Positions 256-35,387 of a DNA stretch of 64,000 nucleotides are shown piece by piece (position 1 is the first letter of the stretch; each line of letters opens with the position of its first letter). The position numbers were made by a program, and so were the translations under genes. The notes below the pieces were generated by a model that was not told the origin of the DNA, did not search any database, and saw only the letters and a program-made list of their open reading frames with translations. The DNA is from Ostreococcus lucimarinus (lineage: Eukaryota): assembly GCA_000092065.1 (NCBI GenBank), contig CP000581.1. One strand, given 5' to 3'.

Positions 256-3200
256 CTAAGAAGGAAAAGAATTTTGCGTTTTGGACGCGGCCTGATTCGG
301 ACGCGAGGGCGACGACGGGTGCGCGACGGCGGCGGCGCACTCGTGCACGGCGAGGGGAAGGCCGGGGAAGGTGAGCGTGACGTACGCGGCAAAAATCGCG
401 CGACGTTGATCGCGAGTGTAGGAACGCGCGGAGGCGTCGAGATCGACGCCGAAAGGCAGGGCGTCGGCGTCGGCGAGCTTGCGAAGAAGCGGGGCGAGCT
501 CCTTGTTGGTCTCGGGCGGGTGCTCGTGGACGTTTCGGCAGAATCTTAAGAGATCAGCGAAGCCAGCGCGGTAGGGCTTGGTGCTTTGCTCCGAAGATTG
601 ACCTCGCGGCGGTTTTTGCTTGTGGTTGTTGGCGTCCGACGAGTGCGGGACGCCGTCGCCGTTTCGCTGCGCAAAGTTTACCACGCGCGACAAGAGGGCT
701 GGTTCGATTTGACGTTGCCAATCTTGGAGGTCCATGGATACCGCGGCGAGAAGTGCGCCTCGTTCGCTGTCACCGCCCAAGAGCGCTTTTGTGTTGACAC
801 TCTGAAGCACGCTCGTCAGGCTGGTTTGTAGCTTGGCGGATCCCGCGTGCAGGTCGCTCAAGTTTTCAAGGACGGTGTCGTCGTCCCACAGCAGTGGATG
901 ATTCAGTACTCCTTCTGCCGTCGGCCGCATCGCCGGGTTGGGCGATAACATCGCCGAAAGCAAATGGCGCGCCTCAATCGCGCGTCTGGGCGGCATGTCG
1001 TTTGCATTCATGAGTCGTTGTAAGTTGTAACGACCGTTGAGAATCTCGTCGTCGCTCGGCTTCACATTCGGGTCTTCACCAAATGGAGAGTTGAACCCGG
1101 TGAGGACGTAAAAGAACACGACACCCATCGCCCAAATATCCGCCGCGGGTGTCAAGGGCTTTCGAGCCAAGATTTCGGGCGCACGCCCGGCCAAGACGAT
1201 GGAGATGCCGTACTTGCTGAACGTACCCAACGAGTATTGATCAGAGTCGCCCTCTTCTTTGCGAAGTCGCACGCCGAGACCGACGTCGGCGATTTTTACC
1301 TTGCCATTTGAAGTCACAAGCAAGTTTTCTGGCTTCAAATCGTTATGTGTGATGCACCCTTGCGTCTTGCCGTCGTCGTGAAGCCATGCGATGCCTTCGG
1401 CGACGCCTTTCAGCAACTTGATTCGTTTCGCCGCCAAGAGATTCGGCTGGCGCGCGATGTGCTCGCGAAGCGACTCTGGACAGAGCTCTTGTGCGATGAA
1501 GACGTTAGAACTCGTGATACCCCAGCAGTGGAAGAACGGAACCAATGGTGACTGATTGAGTGCCGTCATCAACTCGACTTCGCGTTCGACGAGTTGCACG
1601 AGATCACGACCCTTCTCGCCAGGCGGGCGCGCGATTCTTTTGACTGCAACGGCGTGCCTTGCACGCGAAGTGTGTCTAACGTATCCTCGAAAAACGTAAG
1701 TACCCGCGCTGCCGACACCGATGACTTCTTCCTCGTTATAAATGATGCTTTCGCCGACGCGACGCCAGCCACTCGTGCCGTCCGACGTATCATCCGTCAT
1801 TTCCCCGACACCATCTTCGTCCGGCACCGCGTTCGCCCACGCGAGTTTAACGTCTTCGAAGTCTTCACTGTCACTGCTTGCCATAAGTTCGGTTTCAGCA
1901 GATTCGAACAACGGACCACGCACGCCGTTGTCTCGGCCTGCGAACCGTACAGGCTTTTTTGAGCTCATTCCAGACATCTTTGGAGTCGAAGACTTTGATG
2001 GCTTCACCAACCCACTTGCCGCATTCGCCATGCGTTGAATCTGTTCATGTTCGGCTTGCGTAATATCCAAGCTTTCTCTCAGCGTGAGTAGCATTTGTGC
2101 GCTTTCAGGAGTGACCGTGCCGGTGGCCCACGCGACTTTGCTCGCCGCGAAATACGCGCGCAAACGCTGGTCACCACCTTCGAGCGCAGATTCGGCTTCT
2201 AACTCGCTCAGCACAGCTTTTGCTCGACGCATATCAACGTCCGTCGACTCTGGGTCGCGTTGTGACTCTTCGAGCGCTAACCGAAGTTCAGTTCGACTTC
2301 TACTCAAAATAGCCGTCTCCAAACGTTCAAGACGTCGCCACCTCACGAGGACTCGTTCAGCTTTTTCAATCAATTCATCCAATTGCCACGGCCAAGCAGA
2401 AGAACGCGCCCTAGATAGGGCTGATTCTAGCACTTTGACATCTTCGGACGTGATCCCACCGACGGCTTGATCGATTCCATTTGCCGACGGCCTCATCGCT
2501 TCGAGAAGCGCCGCGCGAGCACCCTCCATGTCTTGTAGCGCGGTTGCTCGACTCTGCACTCGACTCACGAGAGTGTTCAGCTTTGCGGCGCCTTCTTGCG
2601 TCAGTGGCGGACCGTTCGATGCAAGCTTAGCCGCCTGTAGCAATAAATTCTCCAACCTAGGCACAGATTCCACGCTCCTACTCGTCTCATCCGCTAGAGC
2701 AGCGCGTAAATCCGATTCAAGCGCGTCGGCGCGCAAAGCGCGTTCGGCTCCAATGACCGCCGCTGTCAAAGCGCTTCGCGCGCTTTTCTTCTTCTTGCTA
2801 CCGCCTTCATCAGCGATGGAGTCTATGACAGCGGCAAACGGATCGGGGTCGTAGGACATAGACGCCGCCGCTTCGTCAACGTCGTCGAACTCATCCAGGC
2901 TCGATTGCACGTCCTCTGCGACGTCTGTCGCGTTACCTAAGAACTGTTCAGCCCGTGCGTAAGTCGCTTGCAAAGCCTGAACATCCATAGGAACCTGCAA
3001 ACACGCTGCTCGTAAGGCATTCGCGAGCGCCAACTCTTCGGCCGCGCTCGCCTTACTACGAATGTCTCTCATTAACTTTTCGCCTTCATCCTGCATGGCG
3101 CCGAGCGCGCGTGCTTCTTTGAGCGCTTCCTCGAGAACGATAAGAGCACGACCTTGGGGGTCGGTTTGCGCCGCTTCAAACGCCCGGAGTACACTTTTTC

Positions 3201-4133
3201 TAGCCTGCACGCGTTTCACCGATCGACCGAGGAGAATCTTCGTGCGACCCTCCATGAGGGTCTTGAGCCGTTCCTTCTCCACATTACGCGCCTTGCCCGT
3301 CTTCACGGACACCGCAAGTGAGTTGTCCAACCACAACGTGAGCTGCACAAATGGGACTTCTTTTTCGAGCAACAGTTCAACAGTGTTGACCATGGCTTCG
3401 CCGTCGGATTCAGCCGCATCTTCGTCCCCAGGGGCGGAAATATTCAACAACATGACGAGCTTCTTGTGCCCTTTTCGCCGTTTTGCATATAGCTCGCTCG
3501 TTTCGTTTTCCCAAATCCCCTCTCGCGAGTACGTGACGAGCTCGTACGGATTATCGGGCCAGAGCCGAGCGAACACCGTTCGTAAATCTCCCATCGTCGC
3601 ACACTGTGGTAACAAGACGTAAATCTTACTCTTTAGCGCTGCTTGTTCGTCTGCCGAGCCGCTCCCCACACGCATTCCACCCGCCGCCGCCAACGCACTT
3701 GTCACCATTAGCACCGTCCGAAGCGTCAAAGCCGTCGTCGGTTGCGTCCAATGGTCCCAAGTCGGCAACATCACCGGCATCTCAGCCGTCGCGTTCCCAG
3801 GATTCTCCACGCTCCGTCCCGCCGCCAACGCCTTGGTCGAGGTTGGAAACGTCGTCGCCGCCCGCAACGACGGCACCGGCACGTGCATCGCCACGCTCGG
3901 CGTTTCGCCGACCACGAGCTTATTCGCCGGAAAGCTCGTCACCTCATTCACGATGACATCCGTCACCTCTTTTACGACCAGCGTCGTCGACGTCTCGCCG
4001 CCGAGGTGCCAACGCACGACGGCTTCGAGCGCGTCCATCTTCGACCCAGGCGCGACGCTCGGTGGCGCCGGCGCTTGGTACACCGTCACCAGCGACGACG
4101 CGCGCCGAACGAAGCCCTCGATCGGGGCCATCC
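256..4133 (-). CDS. Ser/Thr protein kinase fused to a C-terminal KEN (IRE1/RNase L-type ribonuclease) domain, with a long N-terminal globular plus coiled-coil region and no lumenal sensor or TM segment
   Basis: ORF 256..4905 (−). The kinase motifs are present (AVAVKRI, HNDLKPENLLV, a DVG variant of DFG, APEIL). They are followed by HPLLWDDD…DLLRFCRNVHEHPPE…YVTLTFPGLPLAVHE, which matches the IRE1 KEN domain (HPFFW…DLLRAMRNKKHHYRELP…YFTSRFPHLLAHTY). Residues upstream of MNDWMAPIEGF (start ~4133) are R-rich low complexity and overlap the divergent neighbour, so I place the start at 4133; 4767 is an alternative. Confidence 0.6.
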
Positions 4134-4765
4134 AATCGTTCATCGCCTCACCGGCGCGCGCGCCGTCGTCGTCGTCGTCCGTCTTGGCTGTCCGCCGCAC
4201 CGACGTCGACGTCGACCGACGCGTCGCGCCCGCGCGTCGCCGCGCGCGCGCCGTCGCGCCCGCACCGCGCGCCGTCGGCGTCGTCGACGTCGACGACGAC
4301 GCCGCGCCGTGCGACGCCGCGCGCGCGCAGGGCGTCATCGTCGCGGTCGCGCGTCGGTGTGTACCGAACACAGCGACGCGCGAACGCGAAAGATGTTCCG
4401 ACGATGCGCAACGACCGCGGCTCGAGAGCTCGCGCGGGCGCGCCAACGCGCGAAAGCGATCGCGGTGCGCGCGTTGAAGCGTCGAACGCGCGCGAACGCG
4501 ACGCACGCGAACGCGTGAAGGGGAATGATTGAAAGACACGGGGACGCGCGGACGTTCGATCGACGACGACTGACGACGCTGACGGCGCGCGATGCGCGAT
4601 GCGTGGACGCAGGAGAGCGCGACGAGCGCGATGGTATCGATCGATGCGCCGATGGGGTCATCGGGGCGGGCGTGGGTGATGATGCCGCGAACAGCGAGGC
4701 TGGCGGCGACGACGACGTTCGCGAGCGCGGCGGCGTTCGCGGCGTCGGCGACGTCTGCGGCGTGC

Positions 4766-5398
4766 ATGGGCGCGAGTGAGACTAAAGTCGCGAGCGGTGA
4801 GGACGGTGATGCGAATGTGAAGGAAGCGAAGCCGACGGGGACGCCGACGGTGGTTTTCGTGCTCGGCGGTCCGGGCGCGGGGAAGGGAACGCAGTGCGCG
4901 AACATCGTTCGCGACTACGCCTTCGTGCACTTGTCCGCAGGAGACTTGCTCCGCGCGCACATGAAAAGCGGGAGCAAAGATGGAAATATGGTGGCAGAGA
5001 TGATAAAACAAGGTCAGATCGTGCCGAGCGAGGTGACGGTCAATTTGCTCTTGGAAGCGATGCGCGCTAGCGGAAAGGATCGATTTTTAATCGATGGGTT
5101 CCCGCGAAACAAGGAAAATCGCGATGCGTGGGAAACGACCGCGGGCTTCGATTGCGATTTTGTTCTATTTTTCGACTGCCCAGAGGAAGTCATGACAGAG
5201 CGTTTACTCGGCCGTAACGAGGGTCGAACGGACGACAACATTGATACCATCAAGAAGCGTTTCAAGACGTTTCGCGAGAGTTCCATGCCGGTGATCAACT
5301 ACTACGACAGCTTGAACAAGGTTTGCAGCGTCAACAGCGACCAATCGCCCGAAGATGTGTACGCGCAAACTAAAGAGTATTTCTCGAAGTTCGCTTGA
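4766..5398 (+). CDS. UMP-CMP kinase (adenylate kinase family)
   Basis: [16 protein letters not shown]…HLSAGDLLR…GFPRN, the P-loop and NMP-binding motifs of eukaryotic UMP-CMP kinase. The ATG at 4766 gives a short N-terminus; an upstream in-frame ATG at 4592 would add a transit-peptide-like extension ([18 protein letters not shown]). Confidence 0.8.
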
Positions 5399-5512: not shown

Positions 5513-7336
5513 TCAATCAACTTTTCGCGATGCGCGAGCTGACCAACCGATCGGCCCGAAAGAGTTCTTGTTTGGCGCTACGCGTTGCTCTCGCGGGTTG
5601 CTTACTTCTAATTCAGCGACAAACTGACCATGTTCCGAAGTCTTGATGCGCGAGTCGGGCAGCTTCCAACCTCTCGCGATGAAGGCGCGCAACTCAGGCC
5701 CTGAAAACTGAGTTTTCAGACGACTATTACGGTCCCTGGGCGGTAGGGCGTCGTCGTCGCGCTCGAGACCTTTGGCGATGAACTCTGCGCGATTTTTCCA
5801 GCTCTTGGCGAGTTCAGCTTGCACGGCGACTTCCCGCGCGAATCTATCATGCTCTCGCGTATCAAAGGACGACAAATGCGCAATTTCCTTCTTGAGGGCC
5901 TCGATTTCTAAGTTTTTCGCGTTCAAGACTTTGTTCAGGTCGTCAACTTTGCTGCTCGTCTCCGCCATGACGAGCTCTATTTTCTTTTCGCCGAACGTTC
6001 GGGTTTCTTGCGCTTGGGCAATGCTTTCCTTCACCTTACGTTCAGCCATGTGTTCGGAGCTCTCTGCTTCGGCTTTGGACTTCGACGCGGATTTCACATT
6101 ATCGGATACAATCGAACGAAGTTGTTTTATCTCCTCATTCTGCGCCGTAACTTGCTCCTGAAGTGATACAATGATTTCAGTCGCTTTTGTCTTGGCGGCG
6201 GTGAGCGTAGCGTATTCCTCCAAAATTTCGTTCTGGCGGAAGAGCTGAGACTCTGCGGTCTCGGCACGAACGACAGCGGCAGAGATGAGCTGCTCACTCG
6301 TACGTTTCTGCTCTTCGGCGCGCTCTTCCGCTGCCTTTTGCGCGATTCTGGCGTTTTTGACGGCCAACTCGGACGATTCCTTCGCATTCTCGATGCGTTT
6401 GCTGATGGTTTGTTCTGTTTGCGTGATTTTGGATTCGGCTAGCGTAGCGCGCGTGATGGCTTCCGTCGCCCGAATGGTCATGTCTTCTACTGTAGCCATC
6501 AGCGCGAAGATTTCTTGCTCCTTGGCGGTGAGAGTATTCTCCAACGTGTTCTTCTCGTCGCGGGTGGTCTCAAACTGGGTCATGTAAGTTCTGAGTGCCT
6601 CATTTTGTTCCTCGAGTGCCGTGATATTGTCCGTCAGCGCCGTAATCTTCGCACTCTCCGCCTCCATGGCGCTCTCGTGCGACGCTTCCCACATCGCAAT
6701 TTGGTCCTTCGTCTCTGCTTGCACCGTCGCCTCAAGCTTCTTCATGAGCTTGGCTGCGGCTTCCGCTTGTTCCGTCGCGAGCTTTTGCGCCGAGTCGGCA
6801 TCTTGCCGAAATCTTGTGATTTTCTGCTGCTGTTCCGCGTCCAAAGCCTTGCGTACTCGACGTTCGATCTCGCCTTCAACTTGAGCGTACATCTGAGCGC
6901 GAGCGCCTTCGAGACTTTCCATCGCCTTGACTTTAACGCGTTCAATCTCAATACGGAGCGCCACATTTTCATCACGCACGCCGTCGATTGTCGCAGTCAA
7001 CGCGCTCTCCAGCTGCTTCTTATCCATCATCACCTGATCGAGCAACACCGACAGCGCCTTGTTCCTTCGTTCAAGCGTCTGCGACTCGTCGCTTGCCACC
7101 TCCAACTTTCTCATCGCGTCAATCTCGCTCATCGTGCTCTGCTCCCACGCCTCGTCCATCGCGTTGGAATCCATGGGCACCCTGGACGTCGTCTCCGCCG
7201 ATTCCTCGCGCGAACGTCGCGCGGCGCTCCAACCTCGCCGGCGTCCCACAGTCCCCGGCGCCATCTTTCCGGTTGCTTTCGTCCTATTGCGCGATCCGAC
7301 CGCGCGCGCGCCGTGCAATTCCATTTTGCGCATCAT
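5513..7336 (-). CDS. Coiled-coil protein of unknown function
   Basis: A 607-aa ORF made almost entirely of heptad-like E/K/A/L/Q-rich sequence. No recognisable catalytic motif; start uncertain (7336 or the internal MAPGTVG / MDSNAM). Confidence 0.45.
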   Translation of the reverse strand: MMRKMELHGARAVGSRNRTKATGKMAPGTVGRRRGWSAARRSREESAETTSRVPMDSNAMDEAWEQSTMSEIDAMRKLEVASDESQTLERRNKALSVLLDQVMMDKKQLESALTATIDGVRDENVALRIEIERVKVKAMESLEGARAQMYAQVEGEIERRVRKALDAEQQQKITRFRQDADSAQKLATEQAEAAAKLMKKLEATVQAETKDQIAMWEASHESAMEAESAKITALTDNITALEEQNEALRTYMTQFETTRDEKNTLENTLTAKEQEIFALMATVEDMTIRATEAITRATLAESKITQTEQTISKRIENAKESSELAVKNARIAQKAAEERAEEQKRTSEQLISAAVVRAETAESQLFRQNEILEEYATLTAAKTKATEIIVSLQEQVTAQNEEIKQLRSIVSDNVKSASKSKAEAESSEHMAERKVKESIAQAQETRTFGEKKIELVMAETSSKVDDLNKVLNAKNLEIEALKKEIAHLSSFDTREHDRFAREVAVQAELAKSWKNRAEFIAKGLERDDDALPPRDRNSRLKTQFSGPELRAFIARGWKLPDSRIKTSEHGQFVAELEVSNPREQRVAPNKNSFGPIGWSARASRKVD

Positions 7337-7882: not shown

Positions 7883-8542
7883 CTATCCTTGTCTGGAGGC
7901 GAAGAAATTCATCACGCGTCCGAGCAAGTCTGATAACACGTAAATCCCGAGCAACGCGAGGATCGGCGATCGCGCGAACCCGAGCGCGCCCGACGCGACG
8001 CTCTCGTCCACTACCTTGGCTTCCTCGGCGTCCAAATTCGCCGGAACGTATTTGACCGAAACCGAGTTCACGCAGTGTCGCTCCATCGTCGCCGAGAATC
8101 CCTCGTTTTCAAACACATGCCCGAGATGGCCATCACACGCCGCGCACATGATCTCCACCCGTCGCATCCCGAACGCGTTATCGATCTCCGTCTTCAACGC
8201 GCCCGCGTAGCACTTGTCAAACGCCGGCCAGCCGCACCCGCTGTCAAACTTCGATTTGGCGCTGTACAGCGGCGTACCGCAACCGCGGCACACGAAGTGT
8301 CCTTCGCTCGGGTAGAACTTATCGTACTCTCCAGTGCGCGCGGGTTCGGTGCCTTTTTGTCGCAGCACTTGGAACGCTTGCGCGTCGAGCTCTTGCTTCC
8401 ACTCGCTCTCGGGTTTTTCGACGCGAGTCACGTCGACGCGCTTGGACATGGCGCGCGCGACGCGCGCGCGCGCGCGCGTGGGCTTGATGAGAACGCGAGT
8501 GAAGTCAGCGCGCGCGCGCGAGACGTGCGACGCGAAGGACAT
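7883..8542 (-). CDS. msrB: Peptide methionine sulfoxide reductase B (SelR domain) with a C-terminal hydrophobic tail
   Basis: GHFVCRGCGTPLYSAKSKFDSGCGWPAF…CAACDGHLGHVFENEG, i.e. the two CxxC zinc motifs and catalytic Cys of MsrB. The C-terminal SPILALLGIYVLSDLLGRVMNFF looks like a tail-anchor TM helix. The N-terminal ~30 aa may be a presequence (alternative start 8449). Confidence 0.8.
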   Translation of the reverse strand: MSFASHVSRARADFTRVLIKPTRARARVARAMSKRVDVTRVEKPESEWKQELDAQAFQVLRQKGTEPARTGEYDKFYPSEGHFVCRGCGTPLYSAKSKFDSGCGWPAFDKCYAGALKTEIDNAFGMRRVEIMCAACDGHLGHVFENEGFSATMERHCVNSVSVKYVPANLDAEEAKVVDESVASGALGFARSPILALLGIYVLSDLLGRVMNFFASRQG

Positions 8543-8639
8543 GGAACGCGCGGCGGCGTGTGGAGCGCGAGTTGCGATCTCCCGATGGGTGACGTGGGTG
8601 GAACTGGAGATTTGGATAGCACGTCGGGCGAAGGCGGCG

Positions 8640-11600
8640 CTACAAGTCTAAAGCTAAGGCAGCGAACGCGGCGTAGACGAGGAAAAATATGAGAAATGTG
8701 CCTGTGCGAGCGGCGGAGTGATAGTACACGCAAGCTTCGACGGAAGTCGAACCGGCGGAGCTGTTGAAATGGTACAGCGGACATCGCTCGCACAGAGTTA
8801 CGACGGTCGCGCCCGAGGTGACGCCGTAGGTACCCTCCGGACACAGCGTGCAGTTCGCGAGACCGAGGGTGGAGGCGTATGTGCCGGGCGTACACGCATC
8901 ACATGCAGCTTTGCCGCCGGCCGAGGCGCGTCCAAGCGGGCACGGACGACAGACGGTGTCGTCGCCCGTCGTCGCCCCTTGAATCGCGCCGTATGTGCCC
9001 GGGCGGCACGGCTTGCACGTGGACAAACCTGTGACGTCGGAATACGTGCCCGCGGGACATGGGTCGCACAGCTGCGATGCTTCCGTGTCGGAATACGTGC
9101 CAGCGGCGCATTCGATGCACGTCGCAACGCTCGTGCCGCCTTGCTCAGTGCCGTACGTGCCGGCTGGACAACCATCGCAGATCGCCATGCCAGTTTGGCC
9201 CGCGTAAGTTCCAGGTTCACAGTCGCTACAAGATACGGATGCGTCGAGCGAGTACTGACCGATCGCACACTCCAAACAATTTTCGACCGTCGGACTCGCT
9301 TCGACGATGGAATATGTTCCCGCGACGCAATCGATACATCCTGTGGCGGCTGTTGTGTTTGAATACGTGCCCGCGACGCAGTTGAGACATTCAGCCAAAC
9401 CTTCAATGTCTGAGTACGTACCCGTCGGACACGGTTGTAGATTCACCGCCGAAGTGGCACCTTCATCCGGAAGGAAATAGCCAGCGGGCGCAGCTTTGCA
9501 CTCGAGTAAGCCCTCCTCATCCCCGTACGTACCCGCAGGGCACCGAAGACAGTCGACTTGACCATCCGCGGGGTTGTACGTACCGACGGCGCACAATGTG
9601 CACGCCGATACGCTCGTCGCCCCTTCAGCGGCGGAATACGATCCCGCTGGGCAAAGTTTACAGCTCTCCGCGGGAATACCGCTCCCCGGCGCTATGTCAG
9701 AGTAACTCCCTGGCCCACACAACGTACACGCGTCACTTCCTTCATTTATCGATACAGAGCCCAGCGGGCAGTCCTCGCAATCGGTCTTGGCGACGCTTCC
9801 CGTCGTCGCAAGAGCCGTGCCTGCTGGGCACTGCTCACAAGTTTCGCGGCCCTCAGTTGAACTGTAGCTACCAGCGGCACAGGGAACACATACGGTGCTA
9901 CCGAGATCATTCGTAGCGGTCCCAAGCGGGCATGGCAGACATTGATCGACGCTGGTCGCGCCAGTGTCCGCGAGATATGTACCTTTCGGGCACAAGTCAC
10001 ACGTGGGTTCGCCGGCATCGGCTTGATACTGCCCCGCGGGACATTCCTTGCACGGTTCACCATCTGCTGCATAAAAGCCGGCTGGACACACATCACAATC
10101 ATCCTCGCTCACGCTGGCGTAATTTATTGAATACTTTCCAGGCGGACATGTCGTACACTCTGACGTGTCTGTGCGATCGGCTGGACCGTATCGGCCAGGC
10201 GGGCAATCGAGGCACGCACCCATACCCGCATGCGGTGCATATTTACCCGTACCGCAATTTACGCAATCACCTTCCGCAACCGCACCGTCGGTCGCCGTGA
10301 CTTTACCCGCAGGACATGATTTACATAAAGTTTGTCCTTCTTGGTCCTGATACGTACCCGCTTCGCACTTCGTGCAGAACTGATTCAGACCGAGAACTAA
10401 TGTTGACGTCGAGCCAGCGACGGCGGTGTATGTGCCAACTGCGCATTGCTGACATGCATTTTGTAAACTATCTCGTACGATTACGTTTGCCGTTCCAACG
10501 CCGGAATACCCTGCAGGACACTTTGTGCACTCGGTCGCCCCTGCAGTTGCGCTGTACGTACCGTCTGGACACGACAGGCATACACTTTGGCCCATATCCG
10601 ATGTATAAGTTCCCACTGCGCATGGTACGCAGTCATCGACGGATGACATTGTAGCCGTAGCGTCGCCAGTTGTCCCCGCTGGACACGGTGTACACTCGAC
10701 AGCGCCACCTTCTGAGTAAAATCCGATATCGCACGGGTCGCACGCCGACGCACCAGGCGCCGAAGCATCTGTGCCCGCAGGACACGGCTCACATTGCGAG
10801 GCTCCTGTACTCGCAGCAAATTTACCAGCTGGACAGCTCACGCAGTCGCTCGATCGCTGCGCCCCGACGGCCCCGTTGAACGTGCCTATTGGACACCCCG
10901 TGCATGATGCTTGTCCTGTGAGAACTTGATACGAACCCGTCCCGCACGGCGTGCATGATGAGCTTCCCTCCGCCGCGCTGTAGCTCCCTGCCGGGCAAGA
11001 TTCGCAGAATGAAGATGCGAACGCCCCTTCAAACGGAACGAAGGTCCCAGCAGGACATTTAGAGCATACTGATAGACCTGTTGTCGCCGCGTAAGCTCCG
11101 CTTTCACACAGGATACATGATGAACTCGCAGATTCGTTTTGATACTGACCCAAAGGACACGCAGAACAGACGAACGAAGTGAAGTCATTCGTGTAACCTC
11201 CAGCCGAACACGCCGAACACTGTCCCGTTTCAGTATCACGCTCGTACCCAACGTCACACGAAACGCGTAGAGCTAAAGAAAAACCACCCACAGCGACAAC
11301 CATGGTGACTTGTTGCACCTCAGCGACGATGACGGGCGCGGCGACGTACTCCACTTCGCCGTACAACCCCACGTCAGCCGTTGAAAGATATCCGCCCTTG
11401 AACGGCCGAGTGGCACCCATGACTAACGCTTCGAATTCTGCGTTCGATCCACCAACTCGACCGCTCGCATCGAGCGTATCTCGAAACGCATAGAATAATG
11501 TCGACGATGCGCCGCTCTGCAACTCTGTGCCGTAATTGGCTAACAGGCGACGTCTACTGGCACTGATCGCGGTTTGTTGCCATCCTCGCAGCGTCAAAGT

Positions 11601-13415
11601 CAAATTGTACGAGGCGTCCGACGCCGGTCGGGGCTCTAATCCAAGTTGACCAAACTCATTCGATCCCCATGTGAATACCTCACCGTAATCACTCACCGCT
11701 ACAGTGTGCGATCGTCCACATGACACCCAATGTATCTTTACGTTAGCATCAGCGAGCGCGGTCACTTTCGTCGGTATAAATCTACTGACACGGTCATTGT
11801 GACCAAGTTGCCCGAACGTATTGAGCCCCCACGTGTATACCTCGCCAGTGGATGCGACTACTGCCGCGTGGAAGTCTCCAGCTGCGATGAACACCGCTTG
11901 CACGCCCGCGTCTGCCAATGTCGCCAAAACTTTCGGCGCCGCTGAGCGAAAAGGATCCAGACCATCCGTTCCGAATCCGAGCTGGCCGCTTTCGCCGTAA
12001 CCCCACGTGTACACCAAACCACCGTTCGCCCCATTTGCGTCCGCTGCGCTAATCGCCATGGAGTACCGCGCGCTCGCTGCAATCGCTGAGAATTTCACGG
12101 CTGACGGCACCTCTTGCGGTGACTGCGTGGTGGGCATTTCTGGGGCGTCTGGGAACGCGCTGCATGCGCCGGTGCCGTCTCCATATTTACTCACTTCGCA
12201 CGGTTTGAGTCCTAACTGACCATCGATGTTACTACCCCACGCCCAAATCGAGCCGGTGGAAGTCAGCACGAGGGTGTGCGCTAGGCCAGCCGCGACCTCC
12301 ACCGCCGTGACGGAGCCAAATCCATTGTTCACGACACGCGTCGGCAACCCCTTGTTTTTCAAAAATGTTTCCGAGCCGACGTACTGCAACGTCCCTGGCA
12401 TCCAGCCGCGACCGAGTTGACCGAGATCGTCGTTACCCCACGTAAAAACATGGCCGGAAGCGCTCACCGCCACGGCGTGTCTGACCCCCACCGCGACTTT
12501 TGTCATGCCTTCGAGCGCGCCGATGCGAACGGGATTCACAGCCAAGCTCGAAGCGTCAGGCGTTTTCGTCTCCAAGTTGAGAACGCCACTGGAATCGAAA
12601 CCCCATCCCCAAACGTATCCGGTACCGTATTCAACGCCCATCACCGTTTTGTCTGAGGCCGAAATATACGTGAACTGTTTCACCAACTCAAAATTTGCGT
12701 TCGTTACGGGCTGCGATTTCGGCGCAGTGTCACCGAACGCGAGCTGCGCCATGGCGTTATCGCCCCATCCGTACACAACTGCGCTAGAATTCGCGAGTTT
12801 CTTAAACTGCCCGTTATTGGCCGCATCAGTTCCAGTCAACGGCAACGTCAGCGTCGGGTCCCACCAATCCACGGCGTCCACCGTGCTCACGTCTGTTCTC
12901 GACACCCACTTCGCCGTGCACGCCCGCACAAACCTCGACACCGAGTCCTTGTACACCTCTATCGTCACAGTGATCGTACTCTCATCACTACACGCACCAA
13001 CACTATCGATCAATCGATACGTTATCGTCGTCGTGAACTCTCGTCTCGTCTCCGTCTCGTCGCACGGTGCTACGAAGTACGCCGTCTGCGACCCCGCCAA
13101 CCGTCGCGCCGACACCGTCCCGCTCGCCAGCGCGGTGCAATAATTCGCCGCCGCGTCCAACGCGGTGTTCTGATCGTCCTTATACACCGATCCCGTCCCC
13201 GGCAACGACGTGATCAACGCCGACAGCGTGTGCGTATCGTCGCTATCCGTCCCCGCGAGCGTCAGCGTCGCTCGCGAACCCGCGACGACGCGCACGCTCG
13301 ACGCCGACGGCACCACCGGCGTCGCGCCGCGCGCGACGGACGCGACGCCCGCCACGGCGACGAGCGCGGCGACGAGCGCGCTCGACGCGACCGCGTGGCG
13401 TCGGTGTCGACCCAT
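8640..13415 (-). CDS. Secreted/surface protein: signal peptide, N-terminal domain, RCC1-like β-propeller repeats, ~30 tandem Cys-rich repeats (CxxCPxGTYS…; ephrin-receptor-like/GCC2_GCC3 type) and a C-terminal hydrophobic anchor
   Basis: A signal peptide (MGRHRRHAVASSALVAALVAVAGVASVARG) follows the ORF's first ATG. Repeated GHVFTWGNDDLGQLG / GEVYTWGLNTFGQLGH / GEVFTWGSNEFGQLG motifs are RCC1 blades. From about residue 750 the CxxC(P)xGxY…CxxC(P)xGTY unit repeats many times. The C-terminus TGTFLIFFLVYAAFAALALDL is a TM or GPI signal. Confidence 0.7.
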   Translation of the reverse strand: MGRHRRHAVASSALVAALVAVAGVASVARGATPVVPSASSVRVVAGSRATLTLAGTDSDDTHTLSALITSLPGTGSVYKDDQNTALDAAANYCTALASGTVSARRLAGSQTAYFVAPCDETETRREFTTTITYRLIDSVGACSDESTITVTIEVYKDSVSRFVRACTAKWVSRTDVSTVDAVDWWDPTLTLPLTGTDAANNGQFKKLANSSAVVYGWGDNAMAQLAFGDTAPKSQPVTNANFELVKQFTYISASDKTVMGVEYGTGYVWGWGFDSSGVLNLETKTPDASSLAVNPVRIGALEGMTKVAVGVRHAVAVSASGHVFTWGNDDLGQLGRGWMPGTLQYVGSETFLKNKGLPTRVVNNGFGSVTAVEVAAGLAHTLVLTSTGSIWAWGSNIDGQLGLKPCEVSKYGDGTGACSAFPDAPEMPTTQSPQEVPSAVKFSAIAASARYSMAISAADANGANGGLVYTWGYGESGQLGFGTDGLDPFRSAAPKVLATLADAGVQAVFIAAGDFHAAVVASTGEVYTWGLNTFGQLGHNDRVSRFIPTKVTALADANVKIHWVSCGRSHTVAVSDYGEVFTWGSNEFGQLGLEPRPASDASYNLTLTLRGWQQTAISASRRRLLANYGTELQSGASSTLFYAFRDTLDASGRVGGSNAEFEALVMGATRPFKGGYLSTADVGLYGEVEYVAAPVIVAEVQQVTMVVAVGGFSLALRVSCDVGYERDTETGQCSACSAGGYTNDFTSFVCSACPLGQYQNESASSSCILCESGAYAATTGLSVCSKCPAGTFVPFEGAFASSFCESCPAGSYSAAEGSSSCTPCGTGSYQVLTGQASCTGCPIGTFNGAVGAQRSSDCVSCPAGKFAASTGASQCEPCPAGTDASAPGASACDPCDIGFYSEGGAVECTPCPAGTTGDATATMSSVDDCVPCAVGTYTSDMGQSVCLSCPDGTYSATAGATECTKCPAGYSGVGTANVIVRDSLQNACQQCAVGTYTAVAGSTSTLVLGLNQFCTKCEAGTYQDQEGQTLCKSCPAGKVTATDGAVAEGDCVNCGTGKYAPHAGMGACLDCPPGRYGPADRTDTSECTTCPPGKYSINYASVSEDDCDVCPAGFYAADGEPCKECPAGQYQADAGEPTCDLCPKGTYLADTGATSVDQCLPCPLGTATNDLGSTVCVPCAAGSYSSTEGRETCEQCPAGTALATTGSVAKTDCEDCPLGSVSINEGSDACTLCGPGSYSDIAPGSGIPAESCKLCPAGSYSAAEGATSVSACTLCAVGTYNPADGQVDCLRCPAGTYGDEEGLLECKAAPAGYFLPDEGATSAVNLQPCPTGTYSDIEGLAECLNCVAGTYSNTTAATGCIDCVAGTYSIVEASPTVENCLECAIGQYSLDASVSCSDCEPGTYAGQTGMAICDGCPAGTYGTEQGGTSVATCIECAAGTYSDTEASQLCDPCPAGTYSDVTGLSTCKPCRPGTYGAIQGATTGDDTVCRPCPLGRASAGGKAACDACTPGTYASTLGLANCTLCPEGTYGVTSGATVVTLCERCPLYHFNSSAGSTSVEACVYYHSAARTGTFLIFFLVYAAFAALALDL

Positions 13416-13691
13416 CTCGCTCGTTCGATGTTCGTTCGAGTCGTTAGCTCCGCGCATCGTCGCCGTCTCGCGACGTCTCGCGCGCGCCGCGCGCGATGCG
13501 CGCGCGCGCGCGAGCGCCGCACGCGAGCATGTTTTCGTACGACGGCGCGCGCGGGGCGATTGGACGCGACGCGCGCGGTGATTTGACGCGCAAAGGCCCG
13601 CGGCTCGAATCTTCTCGAAGCCGCGTCAAAGTCAAAGTCAAAGTCGACGCCGCGACGCGACGCGCCGGTTATACGCTAAAACGCTAATACG

Positions 13692-17497: not shown

Positions 17498-19788
17498 TCA
17501 ACGACGCCTGAGCGAGGGCGAGGCGAAGAGCGAAGACGCCGGCGCGTGCACGCGAGAGATGGAGGAAGGCGACGCGGACGCGCGACGGTCCCGCGGACGC
17601 GCGACGTCGGCGACGTCGACGCGCGCGTCGCGAACGGCGGCGCGCGCGGAACGCTTTTCTTCGACGGCGCGGTGCAACTCGTCGAGTTGCGCGCGTTGAC
17701 GCTCGATGACGGCCATGATTCTCGCTTCTTCGTCCTCGCCGAGTTGGATCTCATCCGCGGGGGCGATGGTGTGCTGAAGGCGAGAGGCGGCGGCGAGCGC
17801 CTCGGCGCGACGCGGGAGCGACGCGGCGGAGCGGTTGACGCGGGAGCTCAACGCCTTGAAGTCGTTCAAGAGCTCGATTTCCTCGGCGGACATCGGCGGG
17901 ACGGCGCCGCCGTTGGCGTCGGCGTAATTCTTCAACTGCGCTTGGTGGAGCGTGCGGAAGATTTTGATCAACCGATGCTGCTGCTCCATGTTCTTATTTT
18001 TGACGTCCCGCATGCGCTTTTCCAACTCGGTGTCCGCCCACTGCAAGATTTGTCTCACCGACGTCGCCGCGGCTTGGATGTACTCCTCTTGCGCCTTGAT
18101 CTCCGTCTCCGCCTGCGTCTTTCGTTGGATCAATCCCTCGAATCCGTCGTACTGAACGGGCCACAGACAATCGGGGTTGTTCTCGCCACCTACGGCGTCC
18201 AAGAGCTCGCGCCACTTCCGTTCGCTCACGTTCTGCGGCTTCACGCGCATGCGCGGATCTTTGACGACGTTGTAAAAGTACGCTCGGAATCGGTAGTCAG
18301 GATGGTTCGGGTTGTACGCGTTGACGATCTCTTGCACCTCACGCGTGGGATCGAGCGACGACGGATGTTGTTGCATCTGCTGCTGCATTTGCGGGAATAA
18401 GCCGCTGGGCTGCTGCTGCTGCGTCAACGCTCCGGCGGCGCCGGGCGTCGACGGCGCGAACAATCCACCGCCCGAGGGAACGATGGCGTTCGACGGCGCG
18501 CCGAAAGGGTTCGAAGACGTCGTCGCCGCACTCGAGGCACCGAACAAGCCTCCCGGGGACGATGACGGGGCTGGTGTCGCCGATCCAAACAAACCTCCGC
18601 CCGTTGTACCGGGTGTCGCCGCGCCAAACAAACCGCCCGCGGGACTCGAGGCCGGCGCCGCACCGAACAATCCACCGCTCGTAGTCGCCGGCGTCGCGGC
18701 CGCGCTCGCGCCGAACAAACCACCGCCCGAAGTCGCGGCCGGTGCGCTACTACCAAACAATCCACCGAGCGCGGGCGTCGACGCCGCGGGCGAGGCGCCG
18801 AACAAACCACCACTCGTTGCCCCGGGCGTCGCCGCGGCGGACGACCCGAACAATCCGCCGCTCGTCGTCGTCGGCGCCGCGCCGAACAATCCACCACCCG
18901 CGCTCGACGCCGGCGTCGCCGCCGCGCCGAACAACCCACCGCCCGCGCTCGACGCCGGCGTCGGCGCCGCGCCGAACAACCCACCACCCGCGCTCGACGC
19001 CGGCGTCGCCGCCGCGCCGAACAACCCACCGCCCGCGCTCGACGCCGGCGTCGGCGCCGCGCCGAACAACCCACCGCCCGCGCTCGACGCCGGCGTCGCC
19101 GCCGCGCCGAACAACCCACCGCCCGCGCTCGACGCCGGCGTCGCCGCCGCACTCGCGCCGAACAACCCACCGCCCGAACTCGCAGGCGCCGCGCCGAACA
19201 ACCCACCGCCCGAACTCGCAGGCGCCGCGCCGAACAACCCACCGCCCGAACTCGCAGGCGCCGCGCCGAACAACCCACCACCCGCGCTCGACGCCGGCGT
19301 TGCCGCCGCGCCGAACAACCCACCGCTCGTCGCCGCCGCGCCTCCGAACAACCCGCCGCTCGCGCTCGACGCCGACGCGCCGAGCGCGAGCGTCGGCGCC
19401 GCGCCCCGCGCCCCGAACGACCCACCGCCCGCGCTCGATCCCACCGGCGCGGCGCTCCCGAACAATCCACCGCCCGCGCTCCCCGTCGCCGCGGGCGCCA
19501 ACGCCGGCGCCGCGCCGAACGCGCCCCCGCCCGCGCCCGCGCTCGCGCTCGGCGTCCCGAACACACCGCCGCTCGCGCTCGACGCCGCCGCCGCCGCGCC
19601 GTGCGACCCTCCGCTCGCGCGCGTCGCCGCGCCGCCGCCGAACGCGTGCGCCCCGCTCGCCGCCGCGCCCGTCCCGAGGCCCGTCTCGCGCGCGCTCGCG
19701 CTCGCCGTCGCCGGCGCCGACGCCGTCGTCGGCGTCGCGCCGAACGAAAACCCGCCCGTCGTCGCCGCGCCGCGCGGCGTCGCCGGCG
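17498..19788 (-). CDS. FG-repeat nucleoporin, Nup54/Nup57-like (central channel, Nup62 complex)
   Basis: N-terminal GLFGAA/GGGLFG FG repeats, a Q-rich linker, then NPNHPDYRFRAYFYN…NPDCLWPVQYDGFEGLIQRKTQAETEIKAQEEY, which matches the Nup54 α-helical domain (NPDSEKLIPVPMVGFKELLRRLKVQ…), and a C-terminal coiled coil. Start at MFGAPATPRG (19788); the upstream ORF portion is R-rich noncoding. Confidence 0.7.
18890..19335. repeat. Tandem ~48-51-nt coding repeats (about 8 copies; plus 3×36-nt at ~19150-19270) encoding the FG units LFGAA(A/P)TPASSAGGG
   Basis: Direct reading: gccgcgccgaacaacccaccgcccgcgctcgacgccggcgtcgcc recurs with minor variants; ccgaacaacccaccgcccgaactcgcaggcgccgcg occurs 3×. Confidence 0.8.
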
Positions 19789-19861
19789 CGCCGAACATGC
19801 GACGCGCGCGTGTCCCCGAACGCGCGCCGCGCGCCGAGCGACGCGCGTCGACGTCTGACGC

Positions 19862-19905
19862 TGACGCGATTGGATTCGATTCGATTCGATTCGACGATTC
19901 GATGT
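19862..19905. repeat. (GATTC)n microsatellite in the divergent promoter/5'UTR region upstream of the nucleoporin gene
   Basis: ggattcgattcgattcgattcgacgattcgatgtgattcgatcg. Confidence 0.7.
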
Positions 19906-19952
19906 GATTCGATCGACGCGCGCGCCCTCGGACGCGACACATCGCGACGCCA

Positions 19953-20311
19953 TGGCGCACGCCCCGCGCGCGGGCCTCCCGCGCGTCGTGCACGTCAGCT
20001 GGCGCGTCGACGTCGCGCTGCGCACGTCCGAGGGCGCGAACGCGATGACGCCGAGCGTGATCCTGCGACTCGCGCTCGACGACGGGAGCGACCGGACGTT
20101 CGAGTGCGGACTGGAAAAGTTTCACGAGCTGCGAGAGGCGACGGCGACGATGGTGAACGAGATGGAGTGGGCGAGCCGGGACGCGGCGGCGGTGCGGGAG
20201 ATCGGGGCGCGCGCGCGGGCGAGGTGGGAGCGGACGAGGGCGGGGACGACTTCGGGCGAAGAAGGAATAGCGACGAAACGAAACGCGCGGTGCGGCGGCG
20301 ATGATCATTGA
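19953..20311 (+). CDS. Small COMM-domain-like protein (~119 aa)
   Basis: PRVVHVSWRVDVALRTSEGANAMTPSVILRLALDDGSDRTFECGLEKFHELREATATMVNEMEW resembles the C-terminal COMM domain (DWRVDYvLsSs…v.LkL…FEms.dKF..L..EL..A..lM). There is no room for an N-terminal HN domain, so the call is low confidence. Confidence 0.35.
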
Positions 20312-33861: not shown

Positions 33862-35387
33862 TTATTTAGAGCTACCTACGTTCCAAAATCTCAGCTGTCC
33901 GTCGTCGCCGCCGCTGCACAGCCGTTCGCCTCCGTGGTAATCCACGGCGAAGTTTTTCCCGTCGTGCGACGAAACGCTGTGCAGTGGCACTCTACCACGA
34001 ATATCCCATAACTTGACTTTTCCGTCGTATCCACTACTCACGATGTGATGCTCGTTTGTTGGACTCCATCGAACGCACGACACCCACCCCTGCGTTTCAA
34101 ATCGCGCGCGTCAGTCAATCGGCGAAACAATTCATTCCGCGAAACAAATTTTTGCGCGCCGCTCGCAAAGTCTCAGTAAAAAATTAGAGTGATTGATTGT
34201 GCCCTCACGCACGAGTGTCGGGAATCAAAAGTGTGTTCATCACTGACTTTGCGAACGGGCGCGAGCGCGAGCGAGAGTACACATGACGACAAACTTACCT
34301 CGTGAGATTTGAGCTTCAGGCACGCCTTTGCCGACGCCGACTCTCGCGGATCCCACACGTTAACCAGGCGGTCGCTCCCCCCGAAAGCGAACCTACTTCC
34401 TCCCCTCGAGACATCCAAGGTATGGACTGAACTGTTCGTATGATGAGACTCCTTCTCTTCGCCAGTCTCCACGTCCCACGCTCGGATCGTATTATCGTAT
34501 GCGCCGGTCCAAAGTACTTGCGGGCTTTCCCAGGAAACCGCTCGCACTTGATCCGTGTGCCCACGCAACACGAGCTCCTCGCCGAGACCAATTTTCGCGC
34601 TCGCATCGTCGACCATCGCGTCGTCGTCTGTAGCCTCCGATTTCTTCGATGTTCTGCGCTTCTTCGTTACCTTTTCGTTCGCCGACTCGCCACCGTCGAT
34701 TTTCCACACTCGCGCCGTGCAGTCGACGGAACACGAGGCGAACAGTCGAGCGCCGTACGCGCTCGCGACGTCCGTCACAGTGCCCTCGTGACCCTTGAAA
34801 ACACGCTGCTCCCCGAGTTCACACTTTTTCCCAGTCAGCGTCACCGCATACGATCGCAAGGTGTGATCCGCCGAAGCCGCTAACACCACACACGCGTTTT
34901 CTGCGTCCGCGCCGGCGCTCGGCGGCGCCAAGCTCACCGAGCACACGCGCTCTTCCGCGCCTTCCAACTCGCACAGCAACTTACCCACGGGTGACCACAA
35001 CCGTGCTTTACCGTCGAAGGACCCCGTGACGACCGCTTTCGCCCAACTTCCATCGATCGAGCTCACCCACGCCTCGCATTTCGTCGTCTCAGCCGCCGTC
35101 GGCGGTCCCAGCGCCGGCACGTACTCCACCACCAGCGTCGCCTCCGCGCTCTTCCCGAGCCTCAGCGCCAACTTCGCCAGCGACGTGCGCAAAAGCGTTC
35201 CATCGATGAGGAAATCAAACGGCGTCGGCGTCGTCGCGCCGAGCAGGTGATTCACCACCTCGCTCAAGCCGTACCTCGTCAGCCGGCCCGGCACCTCGAT
35301 CGCGCTCTCACTCACGCGAAACTCCTCGGGCAGGCGCGTGACGAAGCTCACCGCGATCTCGACATCGCTCGCGTCCTCGTTCGACAT
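33862..35387 (-). CDS. WDR12: Ribosome biogenesis protein WDR12/Ytm1 (N-terminal Ubl/NLE domain + WD40), 2 exons: 35387..34299 and 34089..33862, intron 34090..34298
   Basis: The N-terminus VEIAVSFVTRLPEEFRVSESAIEVPGRLTRYGLSEVVNHLLG…PFDFLIDGTLLRTSLAKL matches the Ytm1/WDR12 Ubl domain, and WD repeats follow. Exon 1 ends …KLKSHE|gtaagt. The acceptor …tttgaaacgcag| precedes GWVSCVRWSPTNEHHIVSSGYDGKVKLWDIRG…, reproducing the WDR12 HEGWVSSVKWSP block. Confidence 0.8.

Follow-up and report, generated by a model that had tools for sequence, protein, structure and literature searches.

The gene lies on the minus strand of the 64,000-nucleotide stretch of Ostreococcus lucimarinus contig CP000581.1 analyzed here (the window), within an ORF at 256-4905 that ends in the stop codon TAG (256-258) and comprises 1549 codons up to the farthest ATG. 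In-frame Met codons occur at 4131, 4143, and 4338. The start at 4133 given in the initial annotation is off the codon boundary, 2 nt out of frame. Translation from 4143 is 100% identical to XP_001415955.1/ABO94247.1 of O. lucimarinus CCE9901 (1295 aa; "predicted protein" in RefSeq). Our preferred reading is a longer, single-exon coding sequence at 256-4338 (minus strand), which gives 1360 aa from Met-4338 and is collinear with its orthologs. Met-4338 is probably the true start, because the orthologs bear a Ser/Thr/Ala/Arg-rich leader resembling a transit peptide. The corresponding probable leader in O. lucimarinus spans 65 aa (4144-4338, minus strand) and is presumed to be translated on the basis of its composition and a GC content by codon position of 0.66/0.85/0.92. 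A divergently transcribed adenylate kinase gene begins ~430 bp upstream and leaves no room for upstream exons encoding a signal peptide, a lumenal domain, or a transmembrane segment. All of the motifs quoted in the initial annotation were located in the ORF and assigned nucleotide positions.

A protein kinase domain of the IRE1 clade is encoded at 892-1740 (minus strand), as indicated by Pfam (Pkinase, E = 2.7e-35), by profile matches to the PDB, and by its motifs. These include the G-loop GVGSAGT, the Lys of VAVK, the αC Glu (EREVEL), and APE. The protein has HND for HRD (THNDLKPEN, nt 1324-1350) and DVG for DFG (ADVGLG, nt 1273-1290); both substitutions had been noted earlier, and both were confirmed and do not vary within the family. 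None of the catalytic residues (Lys, Glu, HxD, Asn, DxG) is missing, and the motifs are unchanged across 21 aligned sequences. In a single-sequence phmmer search of the PDB the best matches were all IRE1 (1.2e-25). A family profile matched IRE1 at 7e-47 (163 bits) compared with 1e-28 (103 bits) for the best non-IRE1 kinase, and RNase L was not among the best 60 PDB matches of that profile. Judged by these residues and matches, the domain is a non-RD (HND), catalytically competent kinase of the IRE1 clade.

The kinase is followed by a divergent KEN domain (kinase-extension nuclease, HEPN-type) at 322-900 (minus strand), for which the evidence comprises the top Pfam family, a motif alignment, a profile link, and AlphaFold and Foldseek analysis. 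The domain begins with HPLLW (nt 886-900) and contains a disordered insert of ~30 aa. Two further motifs quoted in the initial annotation map to nt 511-579 (KPYRAGFADLLRFCRNVHEHPPE) and nt 340-384 (YVTLTFPGLPLAVHE). The former position holds the catalytic block KPYRAGFADLLRFCRNVHEH (nt 511-579), an Rx4H motif with the pattern Y-x12-RN-x3-H that aligns with YHSSKLMDLLRALRNKYHH of yeast Ire1. Its Tyr, Arg-Asn, and His line up with Y1043, R1056, N1057, and H1061 of the yeast enzyme (numbering of Lee et al. 2008). These Tyr, Arg, Asn, and His residues are invariant in 21/21 aligned sequences, among them distant high-GC relatives and the Ostreococcus paralog P0068, and they hold even where identity over the kinase-KEN region is 36-46%. 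The motif is defined as an Rx4-6H HEPN-type active site with a polar residue after the Arg (PMC3710099).

The full protein matches the Pfam family Ribonuc_2-5A (PF06479) only weakly, at E = 0.13 (12.9-13.3 bits); the C-terminal 214 aa alone match it at 6.4e-4 (20.3 bits), below the gathering cutoff of 23.3. Ribonuc_2-5A is the top family for the C termini of 13 of 13 orthologs, with a best E of 3.9e-6. A profile of the C-terminal family (A1) reaches a fish protein, P0071, that has three bona fide KEN copies, at 2e-7; hhalign links the domain to bona fide KEN with 92.5% probability, over just 22 columns. The only KEN match of the C-terminal profile in the PDB is RNase L, at E = 0.07 and with the catalytic block aligned.

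An AlphaFold prediction of the kinase-KEN region, built from the 21-sequence alignment, had a pLDDT of 84 and a pTM of 0.84, with values >90 across the greater part of the stretches 300-380 and 410-495. When the predicted model was compared with solved structures using Foldseek, the top 31 matches were IRE1 kinase-RNase chains, which aligned over ~500 columns and both domains with target-normalized TM scores of 0.70-0.81 (0.72-0.81 on full-length targets) and E values down to 2e-19. Other kinases aligned over just ~290 columns. The HMM check proposed with the initial annotation is thus formally borderline (20.3 against 23.3 bits), whereas the profile, motif, and structural evidence decides for KEN. 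The arrangement of a kinase followed by KEN stands, and this evidence settles the predicted identity of the C-terminal ~195 aa as a KEN domain that, although divergent, appears catalytically intact.

The large unassigned N-terminal module noted earlier is present; it measures ~800 aa and consists of an α/β domain and helices. A conserved N-terminal segment (WMAPIEG, VTVYQAPAPP) precedes a Rossmann-like, five-stranded α/β domain, the two together occupying 3292-4134 (minus strand) on the evidence of AlphaFold and conservation. The α/β domain carries the motifs SFPANKL, SPSVAMH, KIYVLLP (nt 3607-3627), and AESDGE and a buried helix, TALTLRTVLMVTSALAAAGGM (nt 3673-3735); the AESDGE loop is not conserved in distant relatives. 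In the AlphaFold model (m15654604aa7c, residues 44-290) most blocks have a pLDDT of 72-93, and residues 104-122 form a disordered loop. The segment has no match in Pfam, NCBIfam, or PADLOC and no Foldseek match in the PDB at E<=1e-3.

The α/β domain is followed by a helical region of ~420 aa (2017-3288, minus strand) with helices of 13-42 residues, several of them >=30, and with the conserved motifs ILLGRSVKR, PPLTQEGAAKLN, WPWQL, and LEGGDQRLRAY...LRESLDIT.AEHEQ. The helices are spectrin-like, and structure comparison of the predicted model found no PDB relative for the α/β domain plus helices. An acidic, Ser-rich linker (1777-2013, minus strand), delimited by the alignment and by a low-confidence prediction (pLDDT <50 at model residues 717-764 and 785-795), connects the helical region to the kinase; Micromonas-type orthologs have a conserved insert in it (ELYVLNWDD..ELYVGGAGPR). 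An ENT (EMSY N-terminal) dimerization domain at LEGGDQRLRAY...AEHEQ was considered and rejected, the Pfam match being weak (E ~0.1, in 4/14 orthologs) and a 14-sequence profile of the putative ENT region retrieving no meaningful PDB chain, EMSY included, at E<=10. When a profile of the N-terminal domain was searched against the database, all it matched was four family fragments; low-complexity words probably swamped the search, whose outcome is thus a poor guide to how widely the domain occurs.

As the initial annotation had stated, no transmembrane segment could be detected. Kyte-Doolittle scans with 19-residue windows of this protein and 10 relatives gave maxima of 1.4-2.0, and these fell solely in buried helices of the kinase, KEN, and α/β domains. 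A hidden transmembrane helix at TALTLRTVLMVTSALAAAGGM was rejected: this stretch scores 1.2-1.75, includes an invariant Arg, and is modeled by AlphaFold as a core helix of the α/β domain. The conserved segment TALTLRTVLMV... likewise has an invariant Arg inside it and is modeled as a core helix. Neither a signal peptide nor an ER-lumenal sensing domain was found; the N terminus is rich in Ser, Thr, Ala, and Arg and is not hydrophobic, and the N-terminal model shows an α/β domain and helices with no PDB relative in place of a lumenal domain. Pfam searches with the protein and its orthologs returned nothing beyond the kinase, KEN, and the weak ENT match.

More than 30 collinear relatives, 43-80% identical, were found among Ostreococcus-, Bathycoccus-, and Micromonas-type sequences, which shows that the ORF did not arise by chance, and all of them lack a signal peptide, a lumenal domain, and a transmembrane segment. 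More distant relatives also share the architecture. Because it has been kept in all three types and in these distant relatives, the whole arrangement appears to be under selection. Outside green picoalgae and related metagenome sequences, the family was not found. Ostreococcus has a second kinase-KEN paralog, P0068, with a different N terminus again. A viral origin, or viral homologs, was rejected, no relative being found in IMG/VR contigs and P0068 being flanked by ordinary nuclear genes. A literature search for six accessions from O. lucimarinus or O. tauri found no mention of them.

The closest known system is IRE1/ERN1 (yeast Ire1p and human IRE1α; PDB 3fbv, 2rio, and 6w3c, among others), whose family carries out nonconventional splicing of a bZIP mRNA (HAC1/XBP1/bZIP60) and RIDD at the ER. 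The algal protein and IRE1 share a kinase that passes through an HP[LF][LF]W junction straight into KEN, as well as the KEN Tyr, Arg-Asn, and His residues, and the predicted two-domain structure superposes on the IRE1 kinase-RNase. Nevertheless, the algal protein has the α/β and helical module where IRE1 has a signal peptide, lumenal sensor, and transmembrane segment; its leader is transit-peptide-like rather than an ER signal; its kinase is of the non-RD type and has DVG for DFG; and its KEN domain, with the disordered insert, falls under a Pfam threshold that canonical IRE1 KEN domains pass easily. RNase L (PDB 4o1o) resembles the algal protein in being soluble and in the order of N-terminal regulatory module, kinase-like domain, and KEN, and its membrane-free, ligand-driven dimerization is the nearest functional analogy. 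However, RNase L is a pseudokinase, whereas the algal kinase keeps every catalytic residue and is far closer to IRE1. RNase L is known from animals, where it forms part of the interferon/OAS system. Its ankyrin repeats had no Pfam match at E<=1 in 14 orthologs of the algal protein, and no repeat solenoid is seen in the N-terminal model of that protein. Brassicaceae have a sensor-less IRE1C, that of Arabidopsis being reported to have a transmembrane anchor and essentially no N-terminal extension. IRE1C is thus similar in keeping kinase-KEN and missing the lumenal sensing domain, although the algal family differs in being free of transmembrane segments and in having a large conserved N-terminal module.

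We estimate a probability of about 0.6 that the gene product is a soluble enzyme of the IRE1/RNase L class, composed of an IRE1-clade kinase, a divergent KEN endoribonuclease, and a lineage-specific N-terminal module. By analogy with the known members, its function is most likely that of a metal-independent endoribonuclease switched on through self-association. The N-terminal module would replace the lumenal sensor and transmembrane segment of IRE1, or the ankyrin repeats of RNase L, and would govern self-association via a ligand, partner, or stress signal. Nucleotide binding by the kinase, trans-autophosphorylation, or both would then stabilize a back-to-back dimer, in which the paired KEN domains would cut RNA without metal to leave 2',3'-cyclic phosphate ends. 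The analysis itself shows the predicted fold, the order of the domains, the retained catalytic residues, and the lack of a transmembrane segment and lumenal domain; we infer the RNase activity, its activation by oligomerization, the substrates, and the compartment (cytosol or organelle). The initial annotation suggested that the protein is regulated by oligomerization and unrelated to ER stress sensing; both suggestions are reasonable. A sensor role for the N-terminal module is only an analogy, because the module has no recognizable ligand-binding relative.

Several other readings of the locus were weighed. The long protein might be an annotation artifact, a fusion of neighboring genes in GC-rich DNA with rare stop codons; spurious long ORFs are indeed frequent in the window, many of them overlapping, and the present frame stays open to 4905, past the start of the neighboring gene. 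However, the protein is collinear from WMAPIEG to the C terminus in three genera, including the AT-richer Bathycoccus-type sequences, in which chance ORFs are short. Full-length orthologs are also known from transcriptomes, and AlphaFold predicts confidently folded domains along the protein, so that the probability of such a fusion appears negligible. We also think it unlikely that the protein signals purely as a kinase, its KEN-like domain having degenerated into a structural appendage or serving to bind RNA or protein, even though the likeness of that domain to canonical KEN is limited to the catalytic block, its score is sub-threshold, and it has acquired long, low-complexity, lineage-specific inserts (~100 aa in the Micromonas type). 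The four residues required for catalysis in Ire1 are those that are invariant in all relatives, the predicted fold superposes on active IRE1, and Rx4-6H is kept, whereas inactive HEPN/KEN domains are typically without this motif (PMC3710099). Quite unlikely, too, is that the gene is a functional Mamiellales ortholog of IRE1, still engaged in the ER unfolded-protein response, with a partner protein bringing it to the ER. Such a role would fit the position of IRE1 as the closest of the solved kinases, the JGI auto-annotation as IRE1 of one metagenomic fragment from a related cluster, and the precedent of IRE1C. It is difficult to reconcile with a membrane-less architecture in all of the >30 relatives, a KEN domain much more divergent than that of canonical IRE1, a leader unlike an ER signal, and two Ostreococcus paralogs whose different N termini form a pattern of lineage-specific diversification.

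The cytosolic location proposed in the initial annotation is not secure, because orthologs of all three genera carry, upstream of 4133, acid-poor Ser/Thr/Ala/Arg-rich leaders that look like organellar transit peptides. The first 40 residues of the O. lucimarinus leader contain no Asp or Glu, 12 Ser/Thr (30%), 12 Ala (30%), and 7 Arg/Lys and are followed by the acidic patch DDDDD. Leaders alike in character but unrelated in sequence are found in O. tauri, in O. mediterraneus (transcriptome-derived), and in Bathycoccus-type and Micromonas-type orthologs, and P0068 has one of a similar kind. The leaders of the Micromonas type can be aligned in frame; their final residues, RARVVRAAAA, resemble a stromal processing site. 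It is therefore possible, if doubtful, that the same enzyme is imported into the chloroplast or mitochondrion and acts as a stress-activated kinase/RNase in or on the surface of an organelle rather than in the cytosol. Against this, the RefSeq protein begins at 4143, without the leader; the GC-rich 5' UTRs of this genome give Ala/Arg/Ser-rich peptides through composition alone; extension to the farthest ATG is typical of prokaryote-style gene callers; and to our knowledge no eukaryote-type kinase-KEN protein is located inside an organelle. Mars1 (Cre16.g692228), the kinase of the Chlamydomonas chloroplast unfolded-protein response, has a predicted transit peptide from 1 of 2 candidate starts and is nevertheless described by its authors as cytoplasmic, with the kinase as its sole known motif (PMC6794094). 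Orthology to Mars1, a lead from the literature only, is unsupported: judged by length, source, and name, the 42 proteins that the C-terminal profile retrieved from 1.84 billion representatives included no long Chlamydomonas protein and none named Mars1.

The soluble kinase-KEN protein looks like a third, uncharacterized architecture of the IRE1/RNase L class, since it is conserved across the Mamiellales, and it is membrane-less and probably catalytically active. To the best of our knowledge, gating of a KEN ribonuclease by a kinase-type domain has been characterized only in IRE1 and RNase L. Their N-terminal modules set what is sensed, namely unfolded ER proteins by IRE1 and 2-5A by RNase L. 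With an N-terminal module related to neither of these, a third architecture would bring a new input to the kinase-KEN switch. Ostreococcus, Micromonas, and Bathycoccus, in which it occurs, count among the most abundant picoeukaryotes of the sea and face heavy prasinovirus pressure. Tentatively, and with considerable doubt, we suggest that the Mamiellales, together with certain other green picoalgae, have evolved their own branch of IRE1-like kinase-RNases, which a transit peptide would direct into the chloroplast or mitochondrion or onto its surface and which would serve there as an RNA-cleaving switch triggered by stress or infection. If so, IRE1 and RNase L would have an organellar or antiviral counterpart with a new type of sensor domain, and the two Ostreococcus paralogs would represent sensors diversified around a single effector, much as immune systems do. 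The idea is testable, because O. tauri is open to genetic manipulation. Present domain annotation, which recognizes the kinase only, overlooks the RNase half of these proteins.

The initial annotation held that kinase-KEN is otherwise confined to IRE1 and RNase L, which is broadly correct, although it must be qualified by P0068 and by other KEN fusions and solo KEN proteins already published (PMC3710099). Anantharaman et al. (2013) described kinase-KEN proteins with ankyrin or CCCH domains, KEN combined with ubiquitin or BRCT, and expansions of solo KEN in Oikopleura and monocots (PMC3710099). The algal family shares with these catalogued KEN/HEPN proteins the Rx4-6H active site and a lineage-specific diversification outside the canonical unfolded-protein response; however, none of them has the algal α/β and helical module, and the Mamiellales family is not mentioned there (PMC3710099). 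The fish tandem-KEN protein P0071 belongs with these other KEN architectures.

The kinase-KEN gene occupies a single unbroken ORF on the minus strand that runs from 4905 to a TAG stop codon at 256-258 and comprises 1549 codons counted to the farthest ATG. In-frame Met codons are found at 4131, 4143, and 4338; the start at 4133 proposed in the initial annotation is two bases out of frame. Translation from 4143 gave a 1295-aa protein identical to XP_001415955.1/ABO94247.1 (UniProt A4RRT4) of O. lucimarinus CCE9901, which identifies the window as nuclear DNA of O. lucimarinus. Databases already list the gene, as an unnamed kinase ("predicted protein" or "protein kinase domain-containing protein"), and the RNase half is absent from the Pfam domains precomputed for this entry.

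Pfam Pkinase matched the protein at E = 2.7e-35. A search of all solved structures with the single sequence gave IRE1 for each of the 16 best-matching distinct sequences (top E = 1.2e-25). A profile built from 21 family sequences matched IRE1 in the PDB at 7e-47 (163 bits) and the best non-IRE1 kinase, PLK3, at 1e-28 (103 bits), with RNase L missing from the top 60 matches. The wide margin over PLK3 and the position of RNase L outside the top 60 place the kinase specifically in the IRE1 clade. The glycine-rich loop GVGSAGT, the Lys of VAVK, the Glu of helix alphaC, the Asp and Asn of the catalytic loop (THNDLKPEN), the Asp that binds Mg (ADVGLG), and the APE motif are all invariant in the family, and the catalytic apparatus is intact. 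The HND-for-HRD and DVG-for-DFG substitutions noted in the initial annotation are real, both motifs being invariant across the family. As judged by the HND motif, the enzyme is a non-RD kinase, a type in which activation-loop phosphorylation is usually not required.

The C-terminal domain is very divergent in sequence. Pfam Ribonuc_2-5A (KEN) scored E = 0.13 on the full protein and 6.4e-4 on the last 214 residues, so that on the HMM test which the initial annotation had set for its refutation the KEN assignment is borderline: Ribonuc_2-5A is the top Pfam family but its 20.3 bits lie below the gathering score of 23.3 bits. It was likewise the top family in 13 out of 13 orthologous C-termini (best 3.9e-6), and a profile of these 13 reached RNase L among solved structures only at E = 0.07. 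An hhalign comparison supported the KEN link with 92.5% probability, limited to the 22-column catalytic block. In a phmmer alignment KPYRAGFADLLRFCRNVHEH of the window protein pairs with YRKYHSSKLMDLLRALRNKYHH of yeast Ire1. The Tyr, Arg-Asn, and His of this block, which we take to be Ire1 Y1043, R1056, N1057, and H1061 (numbering of Lee et al. 2008), do not vary in any relative; this holds also for the distant relatives and for the second Ostreococcus paralogue, P0068. The catalytic block of the family fits the Rx4-6H motif of HEPN domains (PMC3710099).

A search of a 1.84-billion protein set with the family profile matched P0071 at 2e-7. This protein (TMS01848.1, Larimichthys crocea, 449 aa) consists of three tandem KEN domains without a kinase and is a bona fide KEN protein (Ribonuc_2-5A 3.8e-28 over three stretches). 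Such "solo KEN" proteins have been described from Oikopleura and monocots (PMC3710099); this one is a vertebrate case.

The last 514 residues were modelled with AlphaFold2 at a mean pLDDT of 84 and a pTM of 0.84, with most post-kinase helices above pLDDT 90. A Foldseek search of the PDB with this model returned IRE1 kinase-RNase chains as all of the top 31 matches, with ∼500 columns aligned, target-normalised TM scores of 0.70-0.81, and E values down to 2e-19, whereas ordinary kinases aligned over only ∼290 columns. The KEN domain contains a disordered insert at model residues 382-406, and in the Micromonas-type proteins the domain is longer by >100 additional low-complexity residues at another site. 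Consistent Pfam top family, catalytic block, the link to P0071, and predicted structure are four independent lines of evidence on which the kinase-KEN assignment is secure (probability about 0.95). The kinase-then-KEN order described initially is thus upheld by profile, motif, and predicted structure, and the predicted KEN fold has an intact HEPN active site.

A database search recovered over 30 relatives that are collinear with the protein, at 43-80% identity. By composition and sequence they fall into three groups, Ostreococcus, Bathycoccus-like, and Micromonas-like; the first is named from cluster members (O. tauri, O. mediterraneus, and O. lucimarinus), and the other two labels rest on composition and similarity. 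Conservation in the family alignment runs from WMAPIEG/VTVYQAPAPP to the C terminus, which marks a conserved gene rather than a chance ORF, and the whole architecture is under purifying conservation. When 1.84 billion representative proteins were scanned exhaustively with HMMER using the C-terminal-domain profile, only 42 proteins reached E ≤ 1e-3. Among them are distant, high-GC metagenomic relatives (P0057, P0058, and P0061-63) with the same architecture, which share the motifs SFPAEKL, WPWQL, L.GGD.RL.AY...EHE, HNDLKP, HPLFW, and LLRF.RNA.EHPP. Apart from one metagenomic fragment auto-annotated as IRE1, no relative has a functional name past "serine/threonine protein kinase", and none of the papers searched mentions any of six accessions from O. 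lucimarinus and O. tauri. A search for viral homologues in IMG/VR contigs found none. Micromonas-type members P0024, P0025, P0027, and P0030 have two lineage-specific insertions (family alignment columns ∼1400-1440 and ∼2020-2110): a conserved block, ELYVLNWDD(P/E)..ELYVGGAGPR, at the boundary of helical region and kinase, and a low-complexity Ala/Arg/Glu-rich stretch of ∼100 aa within the KEN domain.

The C-terminal profile scan also detected a second Ostreococcus kinase-KEN protein (P0068/P0169, 1321 aa), encoded at positions 8001-11966 of locus L001 and represented by an MMETSP transcript of O. 'lucimarinus'. It has ordinary nuclear genes (Arf, UQ_con, Pol theta, and HSP70) as neighbours. 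Its kinase is of the IRE1 clade (best PDB match Ire1, 2.6e-15), with HND and DLG motifs and the KEN block YGNRLFDLVRFARNMHEHPP. The N-terminal ∼780 aa are completely unlike those of the window protein, and the paralogue has an Arg/Ala/Ser-rich leader of its own. Ostreococcus has one effector in two paralogues with differing N termini; lineage-specific diversification of this kind is linked to conflict and stress systems in the HEPN survey (PMC3710099).

No transmembrane-like segment emerged when the window protein and ten relatives were scanned by Kyte-Doolittle hydropathy. The highest values (1.4-2.0) belong to helix alphaF of the kinase, the final helix of the KEN domain, and the conserved N-terminal segment TALTLRTVLMVTSALAAAGGM, which contains an invariant Arg and is confidently modelled as a helix in the core of an alpha/beta domain, in agreement with the earlier statement that the protein lacks a transmembrane helix. 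The model of the N-terminal 811 residues (pLDDT 75.6, pTM 0.48) comprises a five-stranded Rossmann-like domain (residues ∼44-290, pLDDT mostly 72-93 except for a disordered loop at 104-122), a helical part of ∼420 residues with helices of 13-42 residues each, and an acidic disordered linker ahead of the kinase. There is no space for further exons upstream that would encode a signal peptide, lumenal domain, or transmembrane segment, because a divergent adenylate kinase gene (4766-5398, plus strand; Pfam ADK 8e-50) begins ∼430 bp away from a start at 4338, the two genes sharing this upstream region.

The choice of start codon bears on the compartment. Orthologues of all three genera have about 40-150 residues upstream of the conserved WxxP[LI]EG motif. 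These leaders are unconserved in sequence but always rich in Ser, Thr, Ala, and Arg and nearly without acidic residues in the first 40 positions. The window leader from Met-4338 has no Asp or Glu in its first 40 residues and strongly asymmetric codon-position GC (0.66/0.85/0.92). Micromonas-type leaders align with one another in frame, ending in RARVVRAAAA, and Bathycoccus-type leaders are encoded in DNA richer in AT, in which an ORF is less likely to be extended by chance. Although the RefSeq start is 4143, the orthologue leaders together with the composition and codon-position GC of the window leader make 4338 the somewhat more probable start. Beyond about 4340 the open frame almost certainly does not code for this gene. 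In character the leader resembles an organellar transit peptide and may act as one, but GC-rich UTRs can mimic such a composition. A cytosolic location, as first proposed, is therefore not established; the initial interpretation was largely right on structure and over-confident on compartment and coiled coil.

IRE1 and RNase L self-associate, pair their kinase domains back to back, and form from the paired KEN domains a metal-independent RNase that leaves 2',3'-cyclic phosphates. By analogy with both, the N-terminal module would control self-association, nucleotide-bound kinase domains would then dimerise back to back, and the KEN domains brought together in this way would form an active RNase of the same metal-independent kind, with the same cyclic phosphate ends. 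The protein would work like IRE1 and RNase L, yet it is a member of neither as defined: it lacks the lumenal domain and transmembrane segment of IRE1 and the ankyrin and pseudokinase of RNase L. Its motif and predicted fold assign it to the KEN/HEPN class, although its score lies below the Pfam threshold. Published surveys describe kinase-KEN proteins with ankyrin or CCCH, KEN with ubiquitin or BRCT, and solo KEN expansions; the present architecture is absent from them (PMC3710099). It is a third architecture of kinase-KEN proteins and is conserved among ecologically dominant picoalgae. A link to the Chlamydomonas cpUPR kinase Mars1, followed from the literature, found no support. Speculatively, the most attractive roles are an antiviral one like that of RNase L and one in organelle stress, and either, if borne out, would add to the significance of the family.

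Elsewhere on the minus strand, 5513-7336 holds a 607-aa ORF of Glu/Lys/Ala-rich, heptad-like sequence of coiled-coil type with no Pfam match at E ≤ 1e-3, and 8640-13457 encodes a 1605-aa protein with RCC1 repeats, 21 ephrin-receptor-like Cys-rich repeats, and TNFR-/NCD3G-type Cys-rich modules, an unusual mix for a green alga. A local GC peak at 18001-20000 (0.73 versus 0.55-0.65 elsewhere) contains at least five overlapping ORFs of >390 aa on both strands, indicating that spurious long ORFs arise easily in this genome. A very long plus-strand ORF (35247-43793, 2848 aa) lies largely in a lower-GC stretch (∼0.53-0.55, 36 to 44 kb).
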